This document shows positions 24,478 through 36,535 of a stretch of DNA of 64,000 nt, piece after piece. The notes under the pieces are model-generated. The model saw only the letters and a list, made by a program, of their open reading frames with translations. It had not been told where the DNA came from and did no database searches. Position numbers and translations under genes: made by a program. The stretch covers positions 192,001-256,000 of the forward strand of contig JAHPZE010000003.1 of the NCBI GenBank assembly GCA_019058365.1. The letters run 5' to 3'. This stretch comes from Promethearchaeota archaeon (lineage in GTDB: Archaea; Asgardarchaeota; Lokiarchaeia; Sigyniarchaeales; SOKP01). How positions within the stretch are numbered: the first letter of the stretch is position 1; each line of letters begins with the position of its first letter.

Positions 24478-25734
24478 TTATTTTTGTGTGATTTTCTTTT
24501 TTTTAGAATTTTTTTTTCTCGTATTTTTTAAATTAGATTTATTTTCTTCTATTGGAAGAACTATTTCTTCTTCATTAAATTCCTGTCCTTCTTTAAGTTT
24601 GGTGGAGTATTTATTTGCAACTACAGGTTCAGATTCCTTTGGTAAAAGTTTCCTCATCCATTCTGGAAAAGCAGTTGTAATTTGCAAATTGGTTTTCAAA
24701 ACAATATAAGTCTCACCATTATAATTTAATTCTTCAATGACATCATATTTCTTTAAAAAATCAATATTTTCCATTAAGGAATCTAAAGATTTTTTTGAAA
24801 CTAGTTTAGGTAATTTATCTTTTGAAATTAACCCATTTCTTAATTCTGAAAGGACATTATATTTTTTCGAATCCGCCATTATTTGAAATAAAGTAAAAGC
24901 ATCTTCTTTTATTTGTTCCTTAGTTTTCTTTTCATATTCACTATAGTATTCTTGGACTTTAGGAAGGAGTAGTTCTATCAATTCTGGCTTATCATCAATA
25001 TACTCAATGACACTATCGGGTGGTATCCTTTCAGCGTTTACTTCTTTTAATAAAAGTACATATTTCTCTACTAAACCTATTTGGTTAATAAAAATAAATT
25101 GTTTATCGACTAAAGTATCAATAATCTCATTAAAATCTTTTTCTGGAAACTTCTCAATATACCATTCTCTTAACCATTCTAACGGGATTGGACCTTTAGA
25201 CAACTTTTCTAATGTCTTGAATATATGTTTATCATTTAATAAAATAGCTATTTTCTCTTCTTCTGTTTTTTCTCTTGTATCTTCAATAATTGCCCAATAT
25301 AAATTATTTACCCAAGCTTCTATTAAGGATTCATTTTTAACTATATTCTCCTGATCATCTTCATCAAAATTATTTATATCATTTATATAAAATGCTGTAA
25401 AAATTTCTTCATTTGATTGCAATCGTTCTGAGAATTCAGTGCATAGAATTGATATTTTTTCTTCAATTTCAAGAGGAATTTGTTGGTCAAGAATAATTGA
25501 AACCATTAACATTTCTTTATTTCCTCGCGCCCAATCTGAATGAATCTCAAAGTAATAATTCATTGATTTTAGATTTTCAAAAGAATGAGTAAAAAAGCCC
25601 TCACTAAATTGTTGATCCATGATGTTAGCTACTTTACCTGATAATTCCTTTTCTAAGATATTCCTTGGGTAAGAATAAAACACTAATGGACCAATTTTAC
25701 GATGAAAATATGATAAGACGACGATAGTTTTCAA
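24478..25734 (-). CDS. Longin/uDENN-like N-terminal domain protein with C-terminal winged-helix-like repeats (NPRL2/folliculin-like architecture)
   Basis: LSYFHRKIGPLVFYSYP start, FEIHSDWARGNKEMLMVSIIL, two wHTH-like segments. Confidence 0.6.
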   Translation of the reverse strand: MKTIVVLSYFHRKIGPLVFYSYPRNILEKELSGKVANIMDQQFSEGFFTHSFENLKSMNYYFEIHSDWARGNKEMLMVSIILDQQIPLEIEEKISILCTEFSERLQSNEEIFTAFYINDINNFDEDDQENIVKNESLIEAWVNNLYWAIIEDTREKTEEEKIAILLNDKHIFKTLEKLSKGPIPLEWLREWYIEKFPEKDFNEIIDTLVDKQFIFINQIGLVEKYVLLLKEVNAERIPPDSVIEYIDDKPELIELLLPKVQEYYSEYEKKTKEQIKEDAFTLFQIMADSKKYNVLSELRNGLISKDKLPKLVSKKSLDSLMENIDFLKKYDVIEELNYNGETYIVLKTNLQITTAFPEWMRKLLPKESEPVVANKYSTKLKEGQEFNEEEIVLPIEENKSNLKNTRKKNSKKKKITQK

Positions 25735-27546: not shown

Positions 27547-28503
27547 ATGAATGGTTCAAAAGAATTAAATAAAATCCTATTTTGTGGTTTAGAAAATGGT
27601 GGAAAAACTTCAATTTTGCTATTATTAGATAAAAAATTTAGTTTATTACCTGTAGTTAAACCAACTATAAAAGCAAAAAGAACCTTCTATACAAACTCAT
27701 TATTGGGAACCTCAATTGCCCGTTGGGATTTAGGTGGTCAAAAAAATTATAGAAAAATATATTTGGGTAATAAGAGCAAATATTTTACAGATATGCAATC
27801 AATATTCTATGTTATAGATATCCAAGCACCTAAAAAATTTGAAGAATCATTAAAATTTCTTAAAGATATTATTAATATAACCTCAGAGTCACATCCTGAA
27901 AATTTTCAGTTATTAATATTACTCCATAAATACGATCCTGACATAAAAAATAAGAAAGAAACTTTAGATCATATTAATTACCTAGAAAATATAATTTCAT
28001 CTACCATTAAGGAAGTTAAGTTTTCTATTTTTAAAACCTCAATATATGATGAACCAAGTCTATTGAAGGCTTTTTCTGATGGTGTTTTTTATGCAACACA
28101 TAAATCTAAAATGTTTGAAACTTTATTGAAAGAATATATGGGTAAAACTTACAATAGTTCTATGCTTCTACTTGATCAAAATTGCTTTATAATTGCTAGT
28201 AGAACCACAAATGAAAGTTATCAGAAAATTTGTGAAGCTATTGCTCCAAGATTAACTCAAGCATTAGAAAAATTAGAGGAATGGGATATAAATACAATTG
28301 ATATTGTAACAAATATAGAATTTCCAGAAAAACAATCAGAATTCCAAAAAGAGGGAATAATCTTTCTTAGAAAATTAGATATAAATAAAACGAGATTTTA
28401 TTTAATCGCACTTTGTTTAAATAAAAAAGTGAAAATTAAATCATATGAATATTTACCATTGTTAGCAAATAATTTAAAAAATTTACTAGAGAGTTTTGAT
28501 TAA
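27547..28503 (+). CDS. Rag/Gtr-like small GTPase with C-terminal roadblock-like domain
   Basis: G1 GLENGGKTS, G2 PT, G3 DLGGQ, G4 HKYD, G5 TSIYD; C-terminal SMLLLDQNCFIIAS roadblock pattern. Confidence 0.85.
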   Translation: MNGSKELNKILFCGLENGGKTSILLLLDKKFSLLPVVKPTIKAKRTFYTNSLLGTSIARWDLGGQKNYRKIYLGNKSKYFTDMQSIFYVIDIQAPKKFEESLKFLKDIINITSESHPENFQLLILLHKYDPDIKNKKETLDHINYLENIISSTIKEVKFSIFKTSIYDEPSLLKAFSDGVFYATHKSKMFETLLKEYMGKTYNSSMLLLDQNCFIIASRTTNESYQKICEAIAPRLTQALEKLEEWDINTIDIVTNIEFPEKQSEFQKEGIIFLRKLDINKTRFYLIALCLNKKVKIKSYEYLPLLANNLKNLLESFD

Positions 28504-28684: not shown

Positions 28685-29878
28685 ATGATTGTAAGATCTA
28701 ATGTGAATAAATATTATGCAGGGCCTAAGGCTCTATTTGACTCAGATTATATTCCCCCCCACATATTATATAGAAAAAAAGAAGAAAATTCCCTCTTTTC
28801 GATTCTAAATGACTCAATTTCTGATGAGTTTAATCTCAATATAATTTATCAAGGAATTAATGGTATTGGAAAGAAAGTAATAGTTAATAAAGTATTGAAT
28901 GATCTATTAAACCAAAATAAAGATTTCGTTAAAATTAATAAAATTTGTGTGGATTGTAAAAAAAAAACCCCAGAAGAATTAATTTTTTTATTGTTAACCA
29001 AAATAAATGGATTATCAAATCTAAACTTTGATGTTCGATACGTATTAAATTCAGAGATATCTCACTTATGGAATATGTTTAAATTCATTTGTAGTAAAAA
29101 TGATTCTCATTTATTTTTTATATTTAATAACATCGAATATTTAGAACCCGAAATTTTTAAAAAGTTCTTACAATTTGGCAAAGAATCGAATATAACTCTA
29201 ATATCTACTGTAAATAAAATTATACAACCAGGAACAATGGAATTATTCTCTGAATTTGATTTTAAAAAAAAATTGAATTTTTATAATTATCAAGAGCTTT
29301 ATTCTATTCTTAAACAAAGAGTATTACTAAGTTTTTCACATGAAATAGATAGAAACCTAATTAGATATATAACAGATTTAATCTGCGAGCAATATGTACC
29401 AGTTCCGGGTAAAGGAATTGAAATCCTTCGAGATTTATATCCAATATTAAAAAACAAAAATACTTTAGGAAATTTTGAAGTATTAGATATTTGTCAAAAT
29501 GAATTTGATTCTTTTCAAATTTCTGATGAGTTTAGCATGATTAATTATCTTTCTGAAGAAGATATATTAACAGTAATATTTTTAGATAATTTTTCAAATT
29601 ATTTTACTAGCAAAAATAAATATTATATTTCTATAAAAGAATTACACGAATTATATGAAATTTCTTGCGAAAATTTGGAATATGAAAAAAATATTAATGA
29701 ATTTTGTAAAATAATTGAAGAACTTATGAATATTGGAGTTATAAAGCCATCAAAAAGAACAATTCATAAAAATTGTACTCATGAAAGTTTTAATGGTGTA
29801 AATTATGATTCCTTCTTTATATTAATGAATCCTAAACAAATAAAGGTAATTATTGATGCAATTTTTAGCCAGTGTTAA
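28685..29878 (+). CDS. Divergent Cdc6/Orc1-family AAA+ protein with degenerate ATPase motifs
   Basis: LFDSDYIPPHILYR..E, QGINGIGKK, VDC, Y..QELYSILKQR, C-terminal wHTH (ELY...C...F..IIEELMNIGVI). Confidence 0.8.
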   Translation: MIVRSNVNKYYAGPKALFDSDYIPPHILYRKKEENSLFSILNDSISDEFNLNIIYQGINGIGKKVIVNKVLNDLLNQNKDFVKINKICVDCKKKTPEELIFLLLTKINGLSNLNFDVRYVLNSEISHLWNMFKFICSKNDSHLFFIFNNIEYLEPEIFKKFLQFGKESNITLISTVNKIIQPGTMELFSEFDFKKKLNFYNYQELYSILKQRVLLSFSHEIDRNLIRYITDLICEQYVPVPGKGIEILRDLYPILKNKNTLGNFEVLDICQNEFDSFQISDEFSMINYLSEEDILTVIFLDNFSNYFTSKNKYYISIKELHELYEISCENLEYEKNINEFCKIIEELMNIGVIKPSKRTIHKNCTHESFNGVNYDSFFILMNPKQIKVIIDAIFSQC

Positions 29879-30049: not shown

Positions 30050-33000
30050 TTGACTCATATTAAAAAAATTTCTATGAGTGGTTTCAAATCTTTTGGAGAT
30101 CGAACAGTAACTATCAAACTTTCAAGCGGATTCACATGCATCGTTGGACCAAATGGGGCAGGTAAATCTAATATAATAGACGCCCTATGTTTCTCGTTAG
30201 GTAGGTTAAGCAAAAAAACTATGAGAGCAAAAAGTCTAGAGGATCTAATCTTTGCTGGTTCACGAGGAAAAAATCCCTCCCAAAGAGCTTCTGTTACATT
30301 ATATTTTGATAATTCTGATAATGTTTTTCCAGGAGTGACTGGTGATTTTGAGATTACTCGTGTTATCAAGAGGGGTGGTGGTGGGGGATATAAAATGAAT
30401 GGAAAAAAAGTCACTCGCCAACAAATACTTAACGCTTTAGCCGCAGCAAATATTGATCCTGATGGTAGTAATCAATTCGTATTACAAGGAAAGATAGTCG
30501 AATTAACACATATGAATCCTGAAGATCGTAGAAAATTTATTGAGGAATTAATAGGACTTCAAAAATACGATGAAATGAAGGATGTTACTTTAAAAGAATT
30601 AGAAAAAGCAGAAAGAGATTTAGGACAATTTGAAGCAATCTTCAAAGAAGTATCCACCCAACTGAAAAAAGTTGAAAAAGAAAAAAATGATGCTTTAGCT
30701 TGGAAAGAATTGGATGAACAAATAAATTTTTTAAACTCACAGTTAATTGCCTTGAAAATTTCAAAATTAAGAGAAGAGGAAGATGAACTAGAAAAAAAAG
30801 TTGAAGTTTCTTCAAAAATCGTTGAAGAACTGCAAGAAAAAATAAACCGGCAAGAAGATGTATTAAAACAAGAATCTCTTGTTATGGATAATATCCAAAA
30901 AACTATTACTGACAAAGAAAAAGAAAGAGAGCAAATAACCGAAAATATAACTCAAATAAAAACTCAAATATCTTCAAGTCAAACGACTTTAGATTTAGAT
31001 AAAAAATCTATCGATAAATTAACTAAAGAAATTGAATCCTTAGAAAGTCAACAAATGAAACTTGAGGAAGGACAGACTTTTGATTCATTAATAGAAAGTG
31101 CATCAAAGGAAATTTCAGAAAATGAAGATCAGATTGAAGAAGCTAAAAAAGAAATTGAAAAGAGGCAACAAAACCAAGCTGAACTAGACCTTAAAATAAA
31201 AAATAATGAAGATGAAAAATCCCTTTTTAAAGCAGAAATATCCAAAATACAACAAAGTGTATCATCTAATAATGCTCAAATTAAGGTCTTAAGAGGAAAT
31301 GTAAAAAAAAATGAAGAAAAGAAGGAAAAATTAGAAAACGAATTACAAAGGCTAAAAAAAGATGCTGAAAGTATCGATGAGGCTATTGAAGCAACTAAAA
31401 AAGCAGAATCAGAAATTAGAAATAGAATAAACGACTTAAATATCAAAATTTCTAAAGAAAATCAAAATCAAAAAGATCTAGAAAATAATATTAACTCCAT
31501 CCAATCAGAAAAAAATCAATTAAATTCTAAATTGGCAAATTTTCAAGCTACCTTATCCTCTATAAGTACAGAAATTAAAATGAATCGTGAAAACATACAA
31601 GAATTAAATGAAAAGAAAACGTCTATAGAGGAAAAGATTACAGATTTAAGTAAAGGTAAAGATGCTGAAAAAGCAGTAAAAGAATTACTGAGTGAAAATG
31701 AAACAATTAATAAAGATTTAATCGATTTAAAAGCAAAATTAAAACAAGAAAATTCAGTCTATAGGAAGAATGAACAAGATTTAGAATTATTGAAAATGAA
31801 GAAATATTCTTGTGAATCAGAAATCAGTGATAATAATGCAAAGATTGATAATATTAATACAGAACTAAAAATTCTTACAAAAGAATTAACAACATTGGAC
31901 CGAGAAAAGAATAATTTAGCGTTGCATGTAGATACCTTAAATAAAAATCTTACAGATATTACAAGTTCCACTGAAAAGTTTATAATTAAAAAGGATAATG
32001 TACAAAGACGTTTAGAGGATCTTTCTCAAGAAAAAGAAAATTTAATAAAAAAAATTGACTCTTCTGAGGAAGAGTACGAGAAAAATACAAAAGATATTAC
32101 AGGAATTCTCCAAATTTTAAATATGCTCACCCAGAATATTAATATCTCAGTTGAATCTATTAAGGGTAATATACAACAATCGAATGCAGAGGCAATTGAA
32201 TCTTCAGCAGAAGATTTTAAAAAGTATATATTAGATATCATTGATATTATGAAAACAGTAGAGGATATTGGTGAAGATACAGATAAATCTACTGAAATGA
32301 CAGAAATGCTAAGCTCTATTATGCAAACTTTAAAAATGTTCACAGATAATGCTGATGACACAATTAATCAATTAATCGATAAAGTAAAAGAATCCGCCGA
32401 CATTGAAGTACAAAGTTCGACCTCTACATTTGATAGTTTTGTTCAAGATTTAATGGAAATTCTCGAAAATGTATATCTTTCTTTAAGAAAACTAACTATG
32501 TCTAAAAGTCAAGAACTATACAAACAATTGGAAGATATTTCAGATACTATTAAATCTCAAACCGATGATTTTAACAAAATTGAGAATCAATTAACTGAAA
32601 GTAATATCCAAGAAAAACACTTATCTGAAAATCTTTCAGTATATAATAAAAGACTTAATGAAATTGATAAAAGAAATACTGAATTAACTGAAAGAATTAA
32701 AAAAGGAGAAAACGAGATTAATGAAAGAGAGAAGATAATCAAGAACAGACAATCAGAAGCTAACACCTTGGATAATGATATAGAGAAATTAAAAGAATTA
32801 AAGGATACATATTGGGATAACCTTTCTACAATTCAAGATGGTATTGATAAAAAACAAAAAGACTCAGAAAATCTGAGAGAAAAATTACAAGAATTGCATG
32901 GAATTCAGAATTTATTTGATAATATTGCTGAAATCGATGATAATATAGAAAAATTGAATAGCACTATTGGAGAAAAGAAAAATTTAATTATAAATACAGA

Positions 33001-34501
33001 AGAAAATATTAAAAATATTCAAGAAGAGCAAAACTCATTACAAAAAAAGATTGATGACCTTGTTCTAAAAAAACAGAATTTCTGGGAAATAACAGAGAAA
33101 TTTCGAAAGCAAATCGAGGATGAAAATAAAGCGCTTGAAGATATAATGGATCGCTTAAGAGCGCTTGAAAATGTAATGAGGATTATCAACTCTATTGAAG
33201 ATATTAAAAAAGAAAATAGTGATGCTAAAAATAGCGTTGAAACTTGCTTAAAGGATATTGAAGGATTGAATTCTCAGGTTGAGGAAATCCAAAAGAATGT
33301 AGATCAAAAACAAGAAGTAATAGATTCTTTAAGAAATGAAAAAATAGAAGAGTTAGAATCACAGAAAGCTGCCCAGAAGAAATTAAACAAATTGAATAAA
33401 GATTTACAGAAATCTCAAGGGAAGTTGAATGAGTTAAATAAAAATAAAGAAAGAGAACAAAAAATTATTGGGTTACATCAAGATATAAAAGATACGGAAG
33501 AACAGATTGAATCAATAATAAAAGAATTAGGTAATTTTAAAGAAATTTTAGATAGTGAAAATGAAAAGAAAAACGAGAAGCAAAAGGAAATTGATAAGTT
33601 TACACAAGAAAAAGATGAATCATGGAAAAAGCAAAAACAATACCAGAAAATTATAACTGACTTAAAATCAGATCTCTCTATGGAGAATTCTAAAATCAAC
33701 AATTTCGAATCAAAGAAGATAATGTGCACCGATCAAATTGAAACTTTATTCCAACGCTCTAAAGAATATGGATCATTACCTCCAATAACTGACGGACTTT
33801 CAGAACCAGAATTACAATCAGATATTGTAGAAAAAACGCAGAAGAAAAAAGCTCTTGAACCTGTGAATTTAAAAGCAATTGAACAATATGACACTGTAAA
33901 AGAAAGATTTGATGAGATAGATATGAGACGACAAACAATACAAAGAGAAAGGAAATCAATTCTGGACGCCATTGATAAAATTGAATTAGAAAAGACAAGA
34001 ACATTTATGAAAGCATATCACGAGATAAATAGAGAATTTAGTAGGATTTTTCAAAAGCTTAGTCCTGGTGGTTCAGCAAAAATGATTTTGGATAGACCAG
34101 ATAAGCCATTTGAAGGAGGTGTTAGCATAGAAGCAAGACCAAGAGGTAAAAAAATCAGTTCATTAGAAATATTAAGTGGTGGTGAAAAAACATTAGTAGC
34201 TTTATCTTTTATATTTGCTATTCAAGAATTTTATCCTGCGCCGTTTTTCGTTTTAGATGAGATCGATGCAGCCCTCGATGGTCCTAATGTCCACAGAGTC
34301 TCCATGCTGCTGAGAGAATTCTCCACACAATCACAATTCTTGGTTATAAGTCATAGAGAAGAGAATATTGTAAACGCAGATAGGATATACGGTGTATCCA
34401 TGCAGCAGTCTGGAATTACAGATATTTTTAGTGTTAATTTGGAGGACGAGGCAAAACGCATTTTAGAGCTTGAAGATATCAAGCCAAATATTACAGAATA
34501 A
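30050..34501 (+). CDS. smc: SMC-family ATPase (condensin-type heads) lacking a canonical hinge
   Basis: GFKSF, Walker A GPNGAGKSNIIDA, Q-loop FVLQG, PVNLKA, LSGGEK, VLDEIDAALD, ISH; about 1100-aa coiled coil. Confidence 0.93.
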   Translation: MTHIKKISMSGFKSFGDRTVTIKLSSGFTCIVGPNGAGKSNIIDALCFSLGRLSKKTMRAKSLEDLIFAGSRGKNPSQRASVTLYFDNSDNVFPGVTGDFEITRVIKRGGGGGYKMNGKKVTRQQILNALAAANIDPDGSNQFVLQGKIVELTHMNPEDRRKFIEELIGLQKYDEMKDVTLKELEKAERDLGQFEAIFKEVSTQLKKVEKEKNDALAWKELDEQINFLNSQLIALKISKLREEEDELEKKVEVSSKIVEELQEKINRQEDVLKQESLVMDNIQKTITDKEKEREQITENITQIKTQISSSQTTLDLDKKSIDKLTKEIESLESQQMKLEEGQTFDSLIESASKEISENEDQIEEAKKEIEKRQQNQAELDLKIKNNEDEKSLFKAEISKIQQSVSSNNAQIKVLRGNVKKNEEKKEKLENELQRLKKDAESIDEAIEATKKAESEIRNRINDLNIKISKENQNQKDLENNINSIQSEKNQLNSKLANFQATLSSISTEIKMNRENIQELNEKKTSIEEKITDLSKGKDAEKAVKELLSENETINKDLIDLKAKLKQENSVYRKNEQDLELLKMKKYSCESEISDNNAKIDNINTELKILTKELTTLDREKNNLALHVDTLNKNLTDITSSTEKFIIKKDNVQRRLEDLSQEKENLIKKIDSSEEEYEKNTKDITGILQILNMLTQNINISVESIKGNIQQSNAEAIESSAEDFKKYILDIIDIMKTVEDIGEDTDKSTEMTEMLSSIMQTLKMFTDNADDTINQLIDKVKESADIEVQSSTSTFDSFVQDLMEILENVYLSLRKLTMSKSQELYKQLEDISDTIKSQTDDFNKIENQLTESNIQEKHLSENLSVYNKRLNEIDKRNTELTERIKKGENEINEREKIIKNRQSEANTLDNDIEKLKELKDTYWDNLSTIQDGIDKKQKDSENLREKLQELHGIQNLFDNIAEIDDNIEKLNSTIGEKKNLIINTEENIKNIQEEQNSLQKKIDDLVLKKQNFWEITEKFRKQIEDENKALEDIMDRLRALENVMRIINSIEDIKKENSDAKNSVETCLKDIEGLNSQVEEIQKNVDQKQEVIDSLRNEKIEELESQKAAQKKLNKLNKDLQKSQGKLNELNKNKEREQKIIGLHQDIKDTEEQIESIIKELGNFKEILDSENEKKNEKQKEIDKFTQEKDESWKKQKQYQKIITDLKSDLSMENSKINNFESKKIMCTDQIETLFQRSKEYGSLPPITDGLSEPELQSDIVEKTQKKKALEPVNLKAIEQYDTVKERFDEIDMRRQTIQRERKSILDAIDKIELEKTRTFMKAYHEINREFSRIFQKLSPGGSAKMILDRPDKPFEGGVSIEARPRGKKISSLEILSGGEKTLVALSFIFAIQEFYPAPFFVLDEIDAALDGPNVHRVSMLLREFSTQSQFLVISHREENIVNADRIYGVSMQQSGITDIFSVNLEDEAKRILELEDIKPNITE

Positions 34502-34607
34502 TGAAAATATTTCATAGAGGTAGGTAATAATTTCAAAAAATGAACACAATTCAGTTGAAAAATATAATTTTAAAGAATGGACTGTAAATGATTTAAGGGA
34601 ATTTGCA

Positions 34608-35537
34608 TTGAAAAACAATATTAAAATTCCTTCTAAATCTAAAAAAAAGGATATTATTGAATTACTTCAAAATATAACATCTAATCCTGATTTCGTTGAT
34701 CGATCCTTAGAAGAAGAAATGAAAGAGCCCGAAGTAGAATTAATTGCTGAGTTTGATGATGATGAGGATCTTGCATTATTGAGAAAAGAGAAAACTGAAT
34801 TGAAATTTTGGCAAAAACCACCCTTTTCAAGTCTTTTAGATACAGAATTAGCAAAAGAATCCGATATAGCTTTTTATGATTTATCAAAATTAGTAGAAAC
34901 TTTTTTTGATAATATGCTACATGAAGAATTGATTAATTATAAGATTTCTGGAATTGCACTTAAAACATCGGCATCTTTACATCATTACAAAATTTCAAGT
35001 ATAATAAAAGAAGAGGAACAAATTCAAAAAAGAGAAGAATTAGAAAAATTCAGACAAAGTCATTCTAGATCAATCCCAAAAGCATTACCTCAGCCAATCT
35101 CCCCTAAAATGCAAATTGCTACCAAAGATGAATTATTTGATGCTATGCGGTCAGCTATTATTGAAGTTATGCAGAATCAAGAAAAACTAAAAAGAAGAAG
35201 AATGCGAAGAGAAGAACTTAAAGATCAAAAGATCCAAATGAAGTCTAAAGCCCAATTACCCAAAGAACTCTTAAAACATATTAGTGGAAAGGAGCAAACA
35301 GTTGAAGAATTGCATGAATCATGGTATAATCGAATAAAAGCTACAATCAATTTAAACAATAAAGAGACTAGTATTTATGATTTAATGAATATTATTAAAA
35401 ATGAAGAAAAAAGTAGTATAGGGAGGAAGTTTTCATTAGTACGTATGTTTTTAGCTTTATTGTTTTTATCTACTGGAAGTAAATTAAACTTATCTCAAGA
35501 GGAAGATTTCCAAAATATTTTAATCGATATTAGTTAA
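34608..35537 (+). CDS. scpA: Kleisin ScpA
   Basis: PPF..LLD...YDLSKLV..F...INYKISGIAL..SA.L...K N-domain; C-terminal FLALLFL...KLNLSQEEDFQNILI wHTH; lies between smc and scpB. Confidence 0.85.
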   Translation: MKNNIKIPSKSKKKDIIELLQNITSNPDFVDRSLEEEMKEPEVELIAEFDDDEDLALLRKEKTELKFWQKPPFSSLLDTELAKESDIAFYDLSKLVETFFDNMLHEELINYKISGIALKTSASLHHYKISSIIKEEEQIQKREELEKFRQSHSRSIPKALPQPISPKMQIATKDELFDAMRSAIIEVMQNQEKLKRRRMRREELKDQKIQMKSKAQLPKELLKHISGKEQTVEELHESWYNRIKATINLNNKETSIYDLMNIIKNEEKSSIGRKFSLVRMFLALLFLSTGSKLNLSQEEDFQNILIDIS

Positions 35538-35578: not shown

Positions 35579-36535
35579 TTGGAGGAAAATTCGGATGAAA
35601 AAACTAACGAGAAAATAGAAAATAATACTGAAGATGTTCTTAATAAAGAAAATATTGAAGTAATTGAAGAAGAAATTAAAGATGTAGAAAATGTTGTTAA
35701 AAAAGAATCTAAACAAATAGATTCAAATGTATCAATAAAAGAAATTGAAGGCGAGATCATTGAGGAGCTAGAAACAGAATCAGAAGATATTGAAAAACAA
35801 GAATTTATTGAAGAATTAGATCAAGAACCAGAAAATCTACTAATCGAAGAATTTATAGTTGAGCAAAATGTTGAAGATACAACAAATATGCATGAAGATG
35901 CGTTAGAAGGCACAATAATTGATGAAAGCGTATTAGAACTTGATGAAAAAGCTCTTCATCGAAATTTTATTGAAGCGGCTCTCTATGCAGCTGGAGGGCC
36001 TTTAACAATAGAAGAGCTATCAAATAAATTAGAATTTCCTAAAAAAGAAGTTGAGAATTTAGTAAATGAATTAGCTTTTGGTTATTTAGAACGTGTTACA
36101 TCACTAATCATTGCACAAATTGGAGATAGGTATCAAATGCAGATTAGACCAGAATATACGGAAAAAATATCAAAATTTGCTAAAGGAGGAGCAATAGCGG
36201 AAAGATATTTAAGAACTTTAACAATTATTGCTTTAAAGCAACCGATCTTAAAATCAATGGTTATAAAATTAAGGGGTAGTGGAGCATATGAGCATGTAAA
36301 GTACCTTTTAGATAATGAATTCATAAACGCTGTAAAAAAAGGAAGATCTCAAGAATTAACTACTACAGATAAGTATGCTGAAATGTTTGGGTTGCCAAAA
36401 GATATAAGACAAATGAAACAAGTTATGGTTACTCAATTGGGACTAGAAGAAAGGGGTAAAAGTGAGTCTTCAGGTGAAATTGAGAAAGTGGATCAAGGTG
36501 AACCTATGAGTGAAAATGAAGAAGGAGAAGAATAA
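35579..36535 (+). CDS. scpB: KITE subunit ScpB with long acidic N-terminal extension
   Basis: IEAALYAAGGPL, YQMQIRPEY, LRTLTIIALKQPI, KLRG, TTDKYAEMFGL. Confidence 0.92.
   Translation: MEENSDEKTNEKIENNTEDVLNKENIEVIEEEIKDVENVVKKESKQIDSNVSIKEIEGEIIEELETESEDIEKQEFIEELDQEPENLLIEEFIVEQNVEDTTNMHEDALEGTIIDESVLELDEKALHRNFIEAALYAAGGPLTIEELSNKLEFPKKEVENLVNELAFGYLERVTSLIIAQIGDRYQMQIRPEYTEKISKFAKGGAIAERYLRTLTIIALKQPILKSMVIKLRGSGAYEHVKYLLDNEFINAVKKGRSQELTTTDKYAEMFGLPKDIRQMKQVMVTQLGLEERGKSESSGEIEKVDQGEPMSENEEGEE

Follow-up and report, generated by a model that had tools for sequence, protein, structure and literature searches.

A Lokiarchaeal condensin-type SMC protein carrying a duplicated helical unit at the position of the hinge

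The window, a stretch of 64,000 nucleotides of Promethearchaeota DNA, holds a condensin-type smc gene followed by scpA and scpB, the gene order also found for hinged Asgard SMCs, and the features of the locus are listed in Table 1. The other neighbours are a cdc6-like gene and valS, and an Mre11/SbcD gene was not found beside smc among the window neighbours checked. Homologues carry the names Promethearchaeota or Lokiarchaeia, and the hingeless genes are annotated as 'SMC'. The ATPase head is split, and across 123 orthologues its Walker A, Q-loop, signature, Walker B/D-loop and H-loop show no or almost no variation. The protein scored above the cut-off of TIGR02168 and below that of TIGR02169, reached 27 bits against a cut-off of 408 with the RecN family model TIGR00634 and stayed far below the cut-off of the Rad50 models. 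SMC_hinge was not matched in the domain search, the hinge motif Gx6Gx3GG is absent from the 1483 residues, and CxxC is absent from the whole SMC, the apex being without any cysteine. In the apex, Pfam and NCBIfam gave helical families only, all sub-threshold. Since both PF06470 and Gx6Gx3GG are lacking, the protein was filed as a derived variant and not as a canonical Smc-ScpAB member. An assembly artefact or frameshift was ruled out by the same open architecture in more than 100 genomes and in three complete ones.

Table 1. Coordinates of the smc-scpA-scpB locus in the window, with the parts of the SMC protein, and of related non-SMC genes elsewhere.
Feature	Position	Strand	Remarks
smc	30050..34501	+	1483 aa; condensin-type ATPase heads, without hinge; SMC_N, TIGR02168 620 bits (cut-off 567), no PF06470
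N-terminal head	30050..30559	+	about aa 1-170; Walker A aa 33-41, Q-loop aa 145-147; boundary approximate
Arm N-strand	30560..32095	+	about aa 171-682; modules of ~97 aa, breaks start at aa 341, 439, 536 (nt 31070, 31364, 31655)
Apex unit 1	32096..32260	+	aa 683-737; helix A, small-residue zone near aa 711-716, helix B
Acidic turn (variable length) and start of helix C	32261..32308	+	aa 738-753; protein midpoint
Apex unit 2	32309..32473	+	aa 754-808; helix C, small-residue zone near aa 782-787, helix D (to about aa 815)
Arm C-strand	32495..33949	+	about aa 816-1300; 90-aa modules anchored at aa 921, 1011, 1101, 1191
C-terminal head	33950..34501	+	signature aa 1375, Walker B/D-loop aa 1402-1410, H-loop aa 1433-1435; boundary approximate
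scpA (kleisin)	34524..35537	+	open frame from 34524, first common start 34608; weak N-terminal HeH/SAP-like motif in the window's family
scpB (kite)	35579..36535	+	long acidic N-terminal extension
Two-module non-SMC genes	L068:4997-8122, L070:4981-7746, L063:2903-6442 (P0179, P0138)		present in MK-D1 and H. repetitus

The ScpA of the window is below the Pfam cut-off, yet it aligns with Asgard ScpA. Its HeH/SAP-like motif is sub-threshold (best E 7e-5 in the window's family), and in the other families of the order the kleisin N-terminus is lysine-rich or C2H2-like instead. The scpA frame stays open for a further 84 nt ahead of the first common start, and the motif lies within this part (34524-34700), so a non-standard start codon is probably used. 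It may be speculated from sequence that the HeH/SAP-like or lysine-rich kleisin N-terminus is a DNA binder. The acidic extension of ScpB comprises about 125 residues (35579-35960) and is present also in orthologues and in the kites of sister orders. The Cdc6/Orc1-like gene directly upstream of smc (28685-29878) is degenerate and is kept in the window's family and not in the other families of the order. Further upstream are a Rag/Arf-like small GTPase (27547-28503) and a protein that by eye looks longin/DENN-like (24478-25734), typical Asgard eukaryotic-signature genes. Some Promethearchaeaceae carry a large divergent gene upstream of the hingeless smc with a gelsolin-like-looking start, judged from the first residues only (L006:257-3001, L007:10594-12999).

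The first-pass annotation had described the apex, which lies where hinged relatives carry the hinge, as a tandem duplication of a 71-residue helical unit around an acidic turn at the protein midpoint, and both claims hold. In the reading frame 30050-34501, nucleotides 32096 and 32309 correspond to codons 683 and 754, and residues 683-737 align ungapped with residues 754-808 at an offset of 71, with 13/55 identities and a BLOSUM62 score of 77, while the turn at residues 738-749 encloses the midpoint at 741.5. None of 2000 shuffles of the apex reached its best self-score of 80 (mean 28.8, maximum 61). A score of at least 77 was obtained for 4.7e-5 of 363,160 pairs of 55-residue arm windows, the arms themselves holding real repeats. 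In profile-profile comparison (192 modules) the two halves matched with a probability of 98.65 and E 4.6e-16 over 59 columns, and arm segments at offset 71, used as a control, mostly gave E > 1e-3, with exceptions that overlap the arm repeats. An apex half had no match to arm segments elsewhere in the SMC in the profile comparison. No 213-nt repeat is left at the DNA level, which indicates that the duplication is old.

Higher conservation of the apex than of the arms had been predicted, and this was seen clearly within the family, where identity is 59-85% in the apex vs 37-60% in the flanking arm segments, and only moderately across the order, with conservation of 0.40-0.42 in the apex against a mean of 0.32 and a maximum of 0.46 in the distal arms. 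Each unit has a small-residue zone at its middle. The third heptad position is hydrophobic in all four apex helices (0.48-0.72 vs at most 0.33 in nine arm segments, which were longer, so that the arm registers are blurred), and conserved hydrophobic columns make up 0.31-0.33 in the apex helices vs an arm mean of 0.19. So broad a hydrophobic face needs more than two helices. The apex is acidic, with 11 K/R vs 26 D/E, and the tip helices have net charges of about -5.5 and -3.7.

The fold predicted from a single sequence by AlphaFold is a closed up-down four-helix bundle that turns at both small-residue zones (pLDDT 81), whereas prediction with an alignment of 109 sequences gives one long, plain antiparallel hairpin that turns at the acidic loop and keeps its helices continuous (pLDDT 82, pTM 0.42). 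Both models share the helix pairs A-D and B-C and are all-helical, which agrees with the earlier proposal of a fold unrelated to the canonical hinge. What sets them apart is an opening at about 711/782, the difference to be expected between a closed monomer and its swapped form. Covariation (mean-field, 186 modules) is underpowered at an effective depth of about 60 and too weak to choose between the models; it mildly favours the hairpin register, e.g. at 733-757 and 737-755, gives no clear contacts between the zones at this depth, and contains 3 fold-back pairs of helices A and B where about 9 were expected. Prediction of a complex of two copies of residues 640-870 with alignment scored 0.00 in two runs against a mark of 0.42, a mark missed also by a third of solved homodimers, so that this prediction counts neither for nor against a dimer. 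Of the pseudo-two-fold bundle with head-to-tail dimer interfaces proposed in the first-pass annotation, the axis stands, and in the hairpin register it passes near 711/782, at the small-residue zone. The dimer is a candidate, and for its geometry head-to-tail pairing is one of three compatible arrangements. The loss of the hinge across the order, the paired arm modules and the non-SMC proteins with the module, all described below, had escaped the first-pass annotation.

Structural comparisons of the apex gave generic likeness. The closed model had no Foldseek match in the PDB at E <= 0.001 and superposed on p130Cas FAT (Z 15.1, rmsd 2.4, 132 aligned) and on an alpha-catenin M fragment (Z 14.5, rmsd 1.9, 120 aligned), but Z values near 15 are tied with those of designed bundles. 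The hairpin model superposed on ordinary SMC arms with Z about 11. VIA-align and Atlas structure searches yielded helical matches of a generic kind, among which neither RecN nor a hinge chain was prominent, the apex profile matched PDB sequences at best with E 0.011 to designed proteins, and the Atlas feature search gave one unnamed, uninformative cluster at 0.79. Chemoreceptor cytoplasmic hairpin dimers are the geometric analogue of the open model and the vinculin, catenin and FAT four-helix bundles that of the closed one, in each case at 5-15% identity, tied with designed proteins and with no sequence relation.

The arms are built of modules of 97-98 residues on the N-strand and 90 residues on the C-strand (profile E down to 3e-13 and 1e-12). 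Three Sigynarchaeal orthologues of 1296-1299 residues (L064, L065 and P0145) lack exactly 97 residues on one strand and 90 on the other, and arm length per strand is about 410 residues in Sigynarchaea and about 500 in the window SMC. Homology to hinged Asgard SMCs reaches about residue 510-546 and restarts near 982, and about 165 hinge residues have given way to about 465 residues of extra arm and apex. Hingeless SMCs measure 1296-1505 residues vs about 1190 for canonical ones, and canonical Smc has about 330 residues per arm strand (~47-50 nm). At 0.1485 nm per residue, the arms would here be roughly 75 nm and not 50 nm. The mean arm step of 93.5 residues lies between the 91-residue viability period and the superhelical period of about 99 residues of Bacillus Smc (PMC5344682). 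Selection would still be acting on the head-to-tip phase, and the simplest explanation for this is a partner that holds the tip.

The apex profile was found in 125 of the 151 genomes of the class, covering all four families of the order, and in none of 7 genomes from sister orders. Orthologues of the hingeless SMC are present in Promethearchaeum syntrophicum MK-D1, Ca. Lokiarchaeum ossiferum and Ca. Harpocratesius repetitus. Outside the order, 2 of 225 genomes of the phylum sample (G193, G205) had matches, probably on misbinned contigs since the bins are fragmented and the matches score like order members. These hingeless smc genes in bins of other Asgard classes are L013 (G193:C70) and three different copies on the G205 contigs C234, C256 and C278. 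The SMCs of other Asgard lineages have about 1190-1220 residues. A strong canonical hinge was found in 26 of 151 genomes of the order, and in 0/52 and 0/42 genomes of the two largest genera. These hinged SMCs form a separate paralogue clade and often lie beside a divergent kite with no kleisin, a second and unlinked kleisin being encoded elsewhere; MK-D1, H. repetitus, L. ossiferum and some others have such a hinged SMC with its own unlinked kleisin. Genomes with the hinged paralogue hold three SMCs, counting one that is SMC5/6-like. Loci of this patchily kept condensin-type SMC are L046:3177-7393, L048, L049, L050, L085 and L103:4467-8060. The window genome is 100% complete with 6.6% contamination, and its sole other SMC is an SMC5/6-like protein of 1155 residues with a weak, divergent hinge, in a clade distant from the hingeless SMC in the head tree. 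No other condensin-type SMC and no ScpA-type kleisin besides the adjacent one were found in this genome. In head trees of Asgard sequences only, the hingeless clade is placed within the hinged Asgard SMCs with a support of 85-94 and a long stem (0.80), and this nesting suggests that the hinge was lost secondarily.

We infer that the complex is the main Smc-ScpAB condensin of the order, that it derives from a hinged ancestor and that it works like Smc-ScpAB. In the preferred reading, held at a probability of about 0.62, two apex hairpins would pair into a four-helix bundle that stands in for the hinge. In favour of this reading are the near-invariant catalytic motifs, the conserved operon, the missing hinge and hook, the location of the module at the hinge site, the wide hydrophobic face and conservation of the apex, the scarcity of hinged condensins in the order, the paired arm steps that agree with the Bacillus periods, and the direct coiled-coil dimer of RecN. 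The hinge would have been lost and the duplicated 71-residue unit would have taken over dimerisation, each chain ending in a hairpin of about 55 residues in which unit 1 runs up and unit 2 runs down, with A paired to D and B to C. The extra hydrophobic stripe of the hairpin would be buried against the hairpin of the second SMC. Because the units are homologous and antiparallel, a pseudo-two-fold axis makes the tip half and the base half of the hairpin equivalent but inverted, and because of this equivalence side-by-side pairing and head-to-tail pairing with swapped halves would bury similar surfaces. Side-by-side pairing, as in chemoreceptor tails, would suit the Smc rod and is slightly preferred, and head-to-tail pairing, the arrangement of the first-pass annotation, would resemble RecN, whose dimer geometry is antiparallel. 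Together with ScpA and ScpB the heads would close the ring, and their ATP cycle would be the usual one, with arms of roughly 75 nm. The apex, being acidic, is probably a structural clasp and probably without a DNA-binding site.

Against dimerisation speak the single-sequence model, which buries the same hydrophobic face within one chain, the negative charge of the tip helices, which could oppose tip-to-tip pairing, the alignment model, which is an uninterrupted hairpin at a pTM of 0.42, the covariation, with its mild preference for the hairpin register and no clear contacts between the zones, and the moderate margin of apex over distal-arm conservation across the order. The apex could instead be a closed monomeric four-helix bundle of vinculin/catenin/FAT-like topology that closes off the arm and serves as a docking site for another protein, while only heads and kleisin, or a weak contact between bundles, would hold the two SMCs together. 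This is regarded as unlikely. The turns of the single-sequence model at the small-residue zones and its superposition on FAT and catenin bundles are in its favour, as is the recruitment of the apex module into non-SMC proteins (see below), which is typical of interaction domains, but both helices remain continuous in the 109-sequence model, the fold-back pairs of A and B are not enriched in covariation, and the Z values are equalled by designed bundles. A ring-type Smc-ScpAB with tuned arm length, moreover, normally requires a distal dimer contact (PMC5344682).

A further reading takes the apex for an ordinary coiled-coil turn lacking any distinctive surface, which would make the repeat a by-product of the duplications that lengthened the arms. 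The alignment-based model is indeed a simple hairpin that superposes on ordinary SMC arms, and the arms did grow by duplication, but no homology links the arm modules to the apex unit, which has a wider hydrophobic face, exceeds its flanks in conservation and moved as a whole into other proteins. This explanation is very improbable. Rather improbable, too, is a repurposed complex that serves as a long tether or cytoskeleton-linked ATPase and does not extrude loops, with a hinged paralogue or the SMC5/6-related complex organising the chromosome. The long stem of the hingeless clade, the hinged SMCs with their own unlinked kleisin in MK-D1, H. repetitus, L. ossiferum and some others and the SMC5/6-like SMC of the window genome would fit such a change of function. 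The hingeless gene, however, still lies in the kleisin-kite operon of its ancestors and is present almost throughout the order, against 26/151 genomes for the hinged paralogue, the heads and the head-proximal arm are strongly conserved, and the HeH/SAP-like or lysine-rich N-termini gained by the kleisin suggest DNA binding.

With Smc-ScpAB the complex shares the ATPase heads, the head-proximal arm, the smc-scpA-scpB operon and the position among hinged Asgard SMCs; it differs in the lack of the alpha/beta hinge, the duplicated helical apex, the modular arms and the extended N-termini of kleisin and kite. RecN is likewise an SMC-family ATPase without a hinge and dimerises directly via its coiled-coil region (PMC5128194), but has about 550 residues and a short, rigid arm, lacks kleisin and kite, and acts in repair. 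A Bacillus Smc chimera, Smc(Zh), with the Rad50/SbcC zinc hook in place of the hinge is functional and keeps the periodic dependence on arm length (PMC5344682); it too has a non-hinge element at the arm apex, but is engineered, whereas the Lokiarchaeal apex is natural and without CxxC. Hinge loss as such has a precedent in marine Actinomycetes, from which Sussfeld et al. 2025 (PMC12153180) describe a clade of SMCs with a true SMC head that are hinge-less and hook-less, without CxxC. These proteins are bacterial and environmental, unlike the Lokiarchaeal one, and as none was retrieved when 1.84 billion representatives were searched with the apex profile, independent loss of the hinge is likely. 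The SMC-kleisin-kite cluster of MK-D1 is given as an example in the Supplementary Text of van Hooff et al. (10.1101/2024.01.07.573240); by its gene order it is most likely the hingeless one, and the word 'hinge' is absent from these supplements. The hingeless Lokiarchaeal SMC was not described in the literature searched, which covered few subscription journals, and within the same scope the duplicated apex, the matched arm modules, the retained operon and the order-wide spread are without precedent.

The hinge counts as one of the features that define an SMC protein, and in several models of loop extrusion and loading it binds DNA or acts as a gate. Throughout this order, intact heads, kleisin and kite are combined with an acidic helical tip, and in most of the sampled genomes a strongly hinged condensin was not found, which favours models in which arms and heads do the work. 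The order offers a natural test of whether an SMC needs a hinge at all, and a natural counterpart of both Bacillus engineering results, with the hinge replaced and the arms changed in steps of one superhelical period on both strands. The question is testable, since MK-D1 and L. ossiferum, both in culture, carry the genes, and the parts are suited to expression. Caution is called for with head-only phylogenies of SMCs from eukaryote-related archaea, which contain a protein of very different architecture.

The apex module was also found outside SMC proteins. The search of the 1.84 billion representatives gave 43 matches, and, weak chance matches aside, the ones looked at belonged to the order; P0156 and P0158, which match the profile weakly, were taken as chance helical matches, as were LeuRS-like ORFs in L075/L076. 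A non-SMC family of 920-1290 residues in Promethearchaeaceae has two complete apex modules about 255 residues apart, together with DUF11-like (Ig-like) beta domains (an Atlas lead with scores <0.9), a coiled coil and a histone-H1-like lysine-rich tail. The N-terminal 266 residues of the two-module protein align with SMC residues 647-872. A search of the window's genome gave no member of this family. The first module is acidic and the second has a basic tip (+1.8, +7.0), which hints weakly at heterotypic side-by-side pairing. It is conceivable, though unlikely, that a hinge-free condensin organises Lokiarchaeal chromosomes with its ring closed by a pseudo-symmetric helical clasp that switches between fold-back, side-by-side and head-to-tail states, perhaps as a gate or to join complexes into chains, with DNA binding perhaps shifted to the kleisin N-terminus and the clasp perhaps bound or regulated by the two-module protein. 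One genome, in a bin with 8% contamination, encodes a small-GTPase fusion of 878 residues (L078:1033-3669) with one and a half SMC-like apex modules, a beta domain and a C-terminal zinc ribbon.
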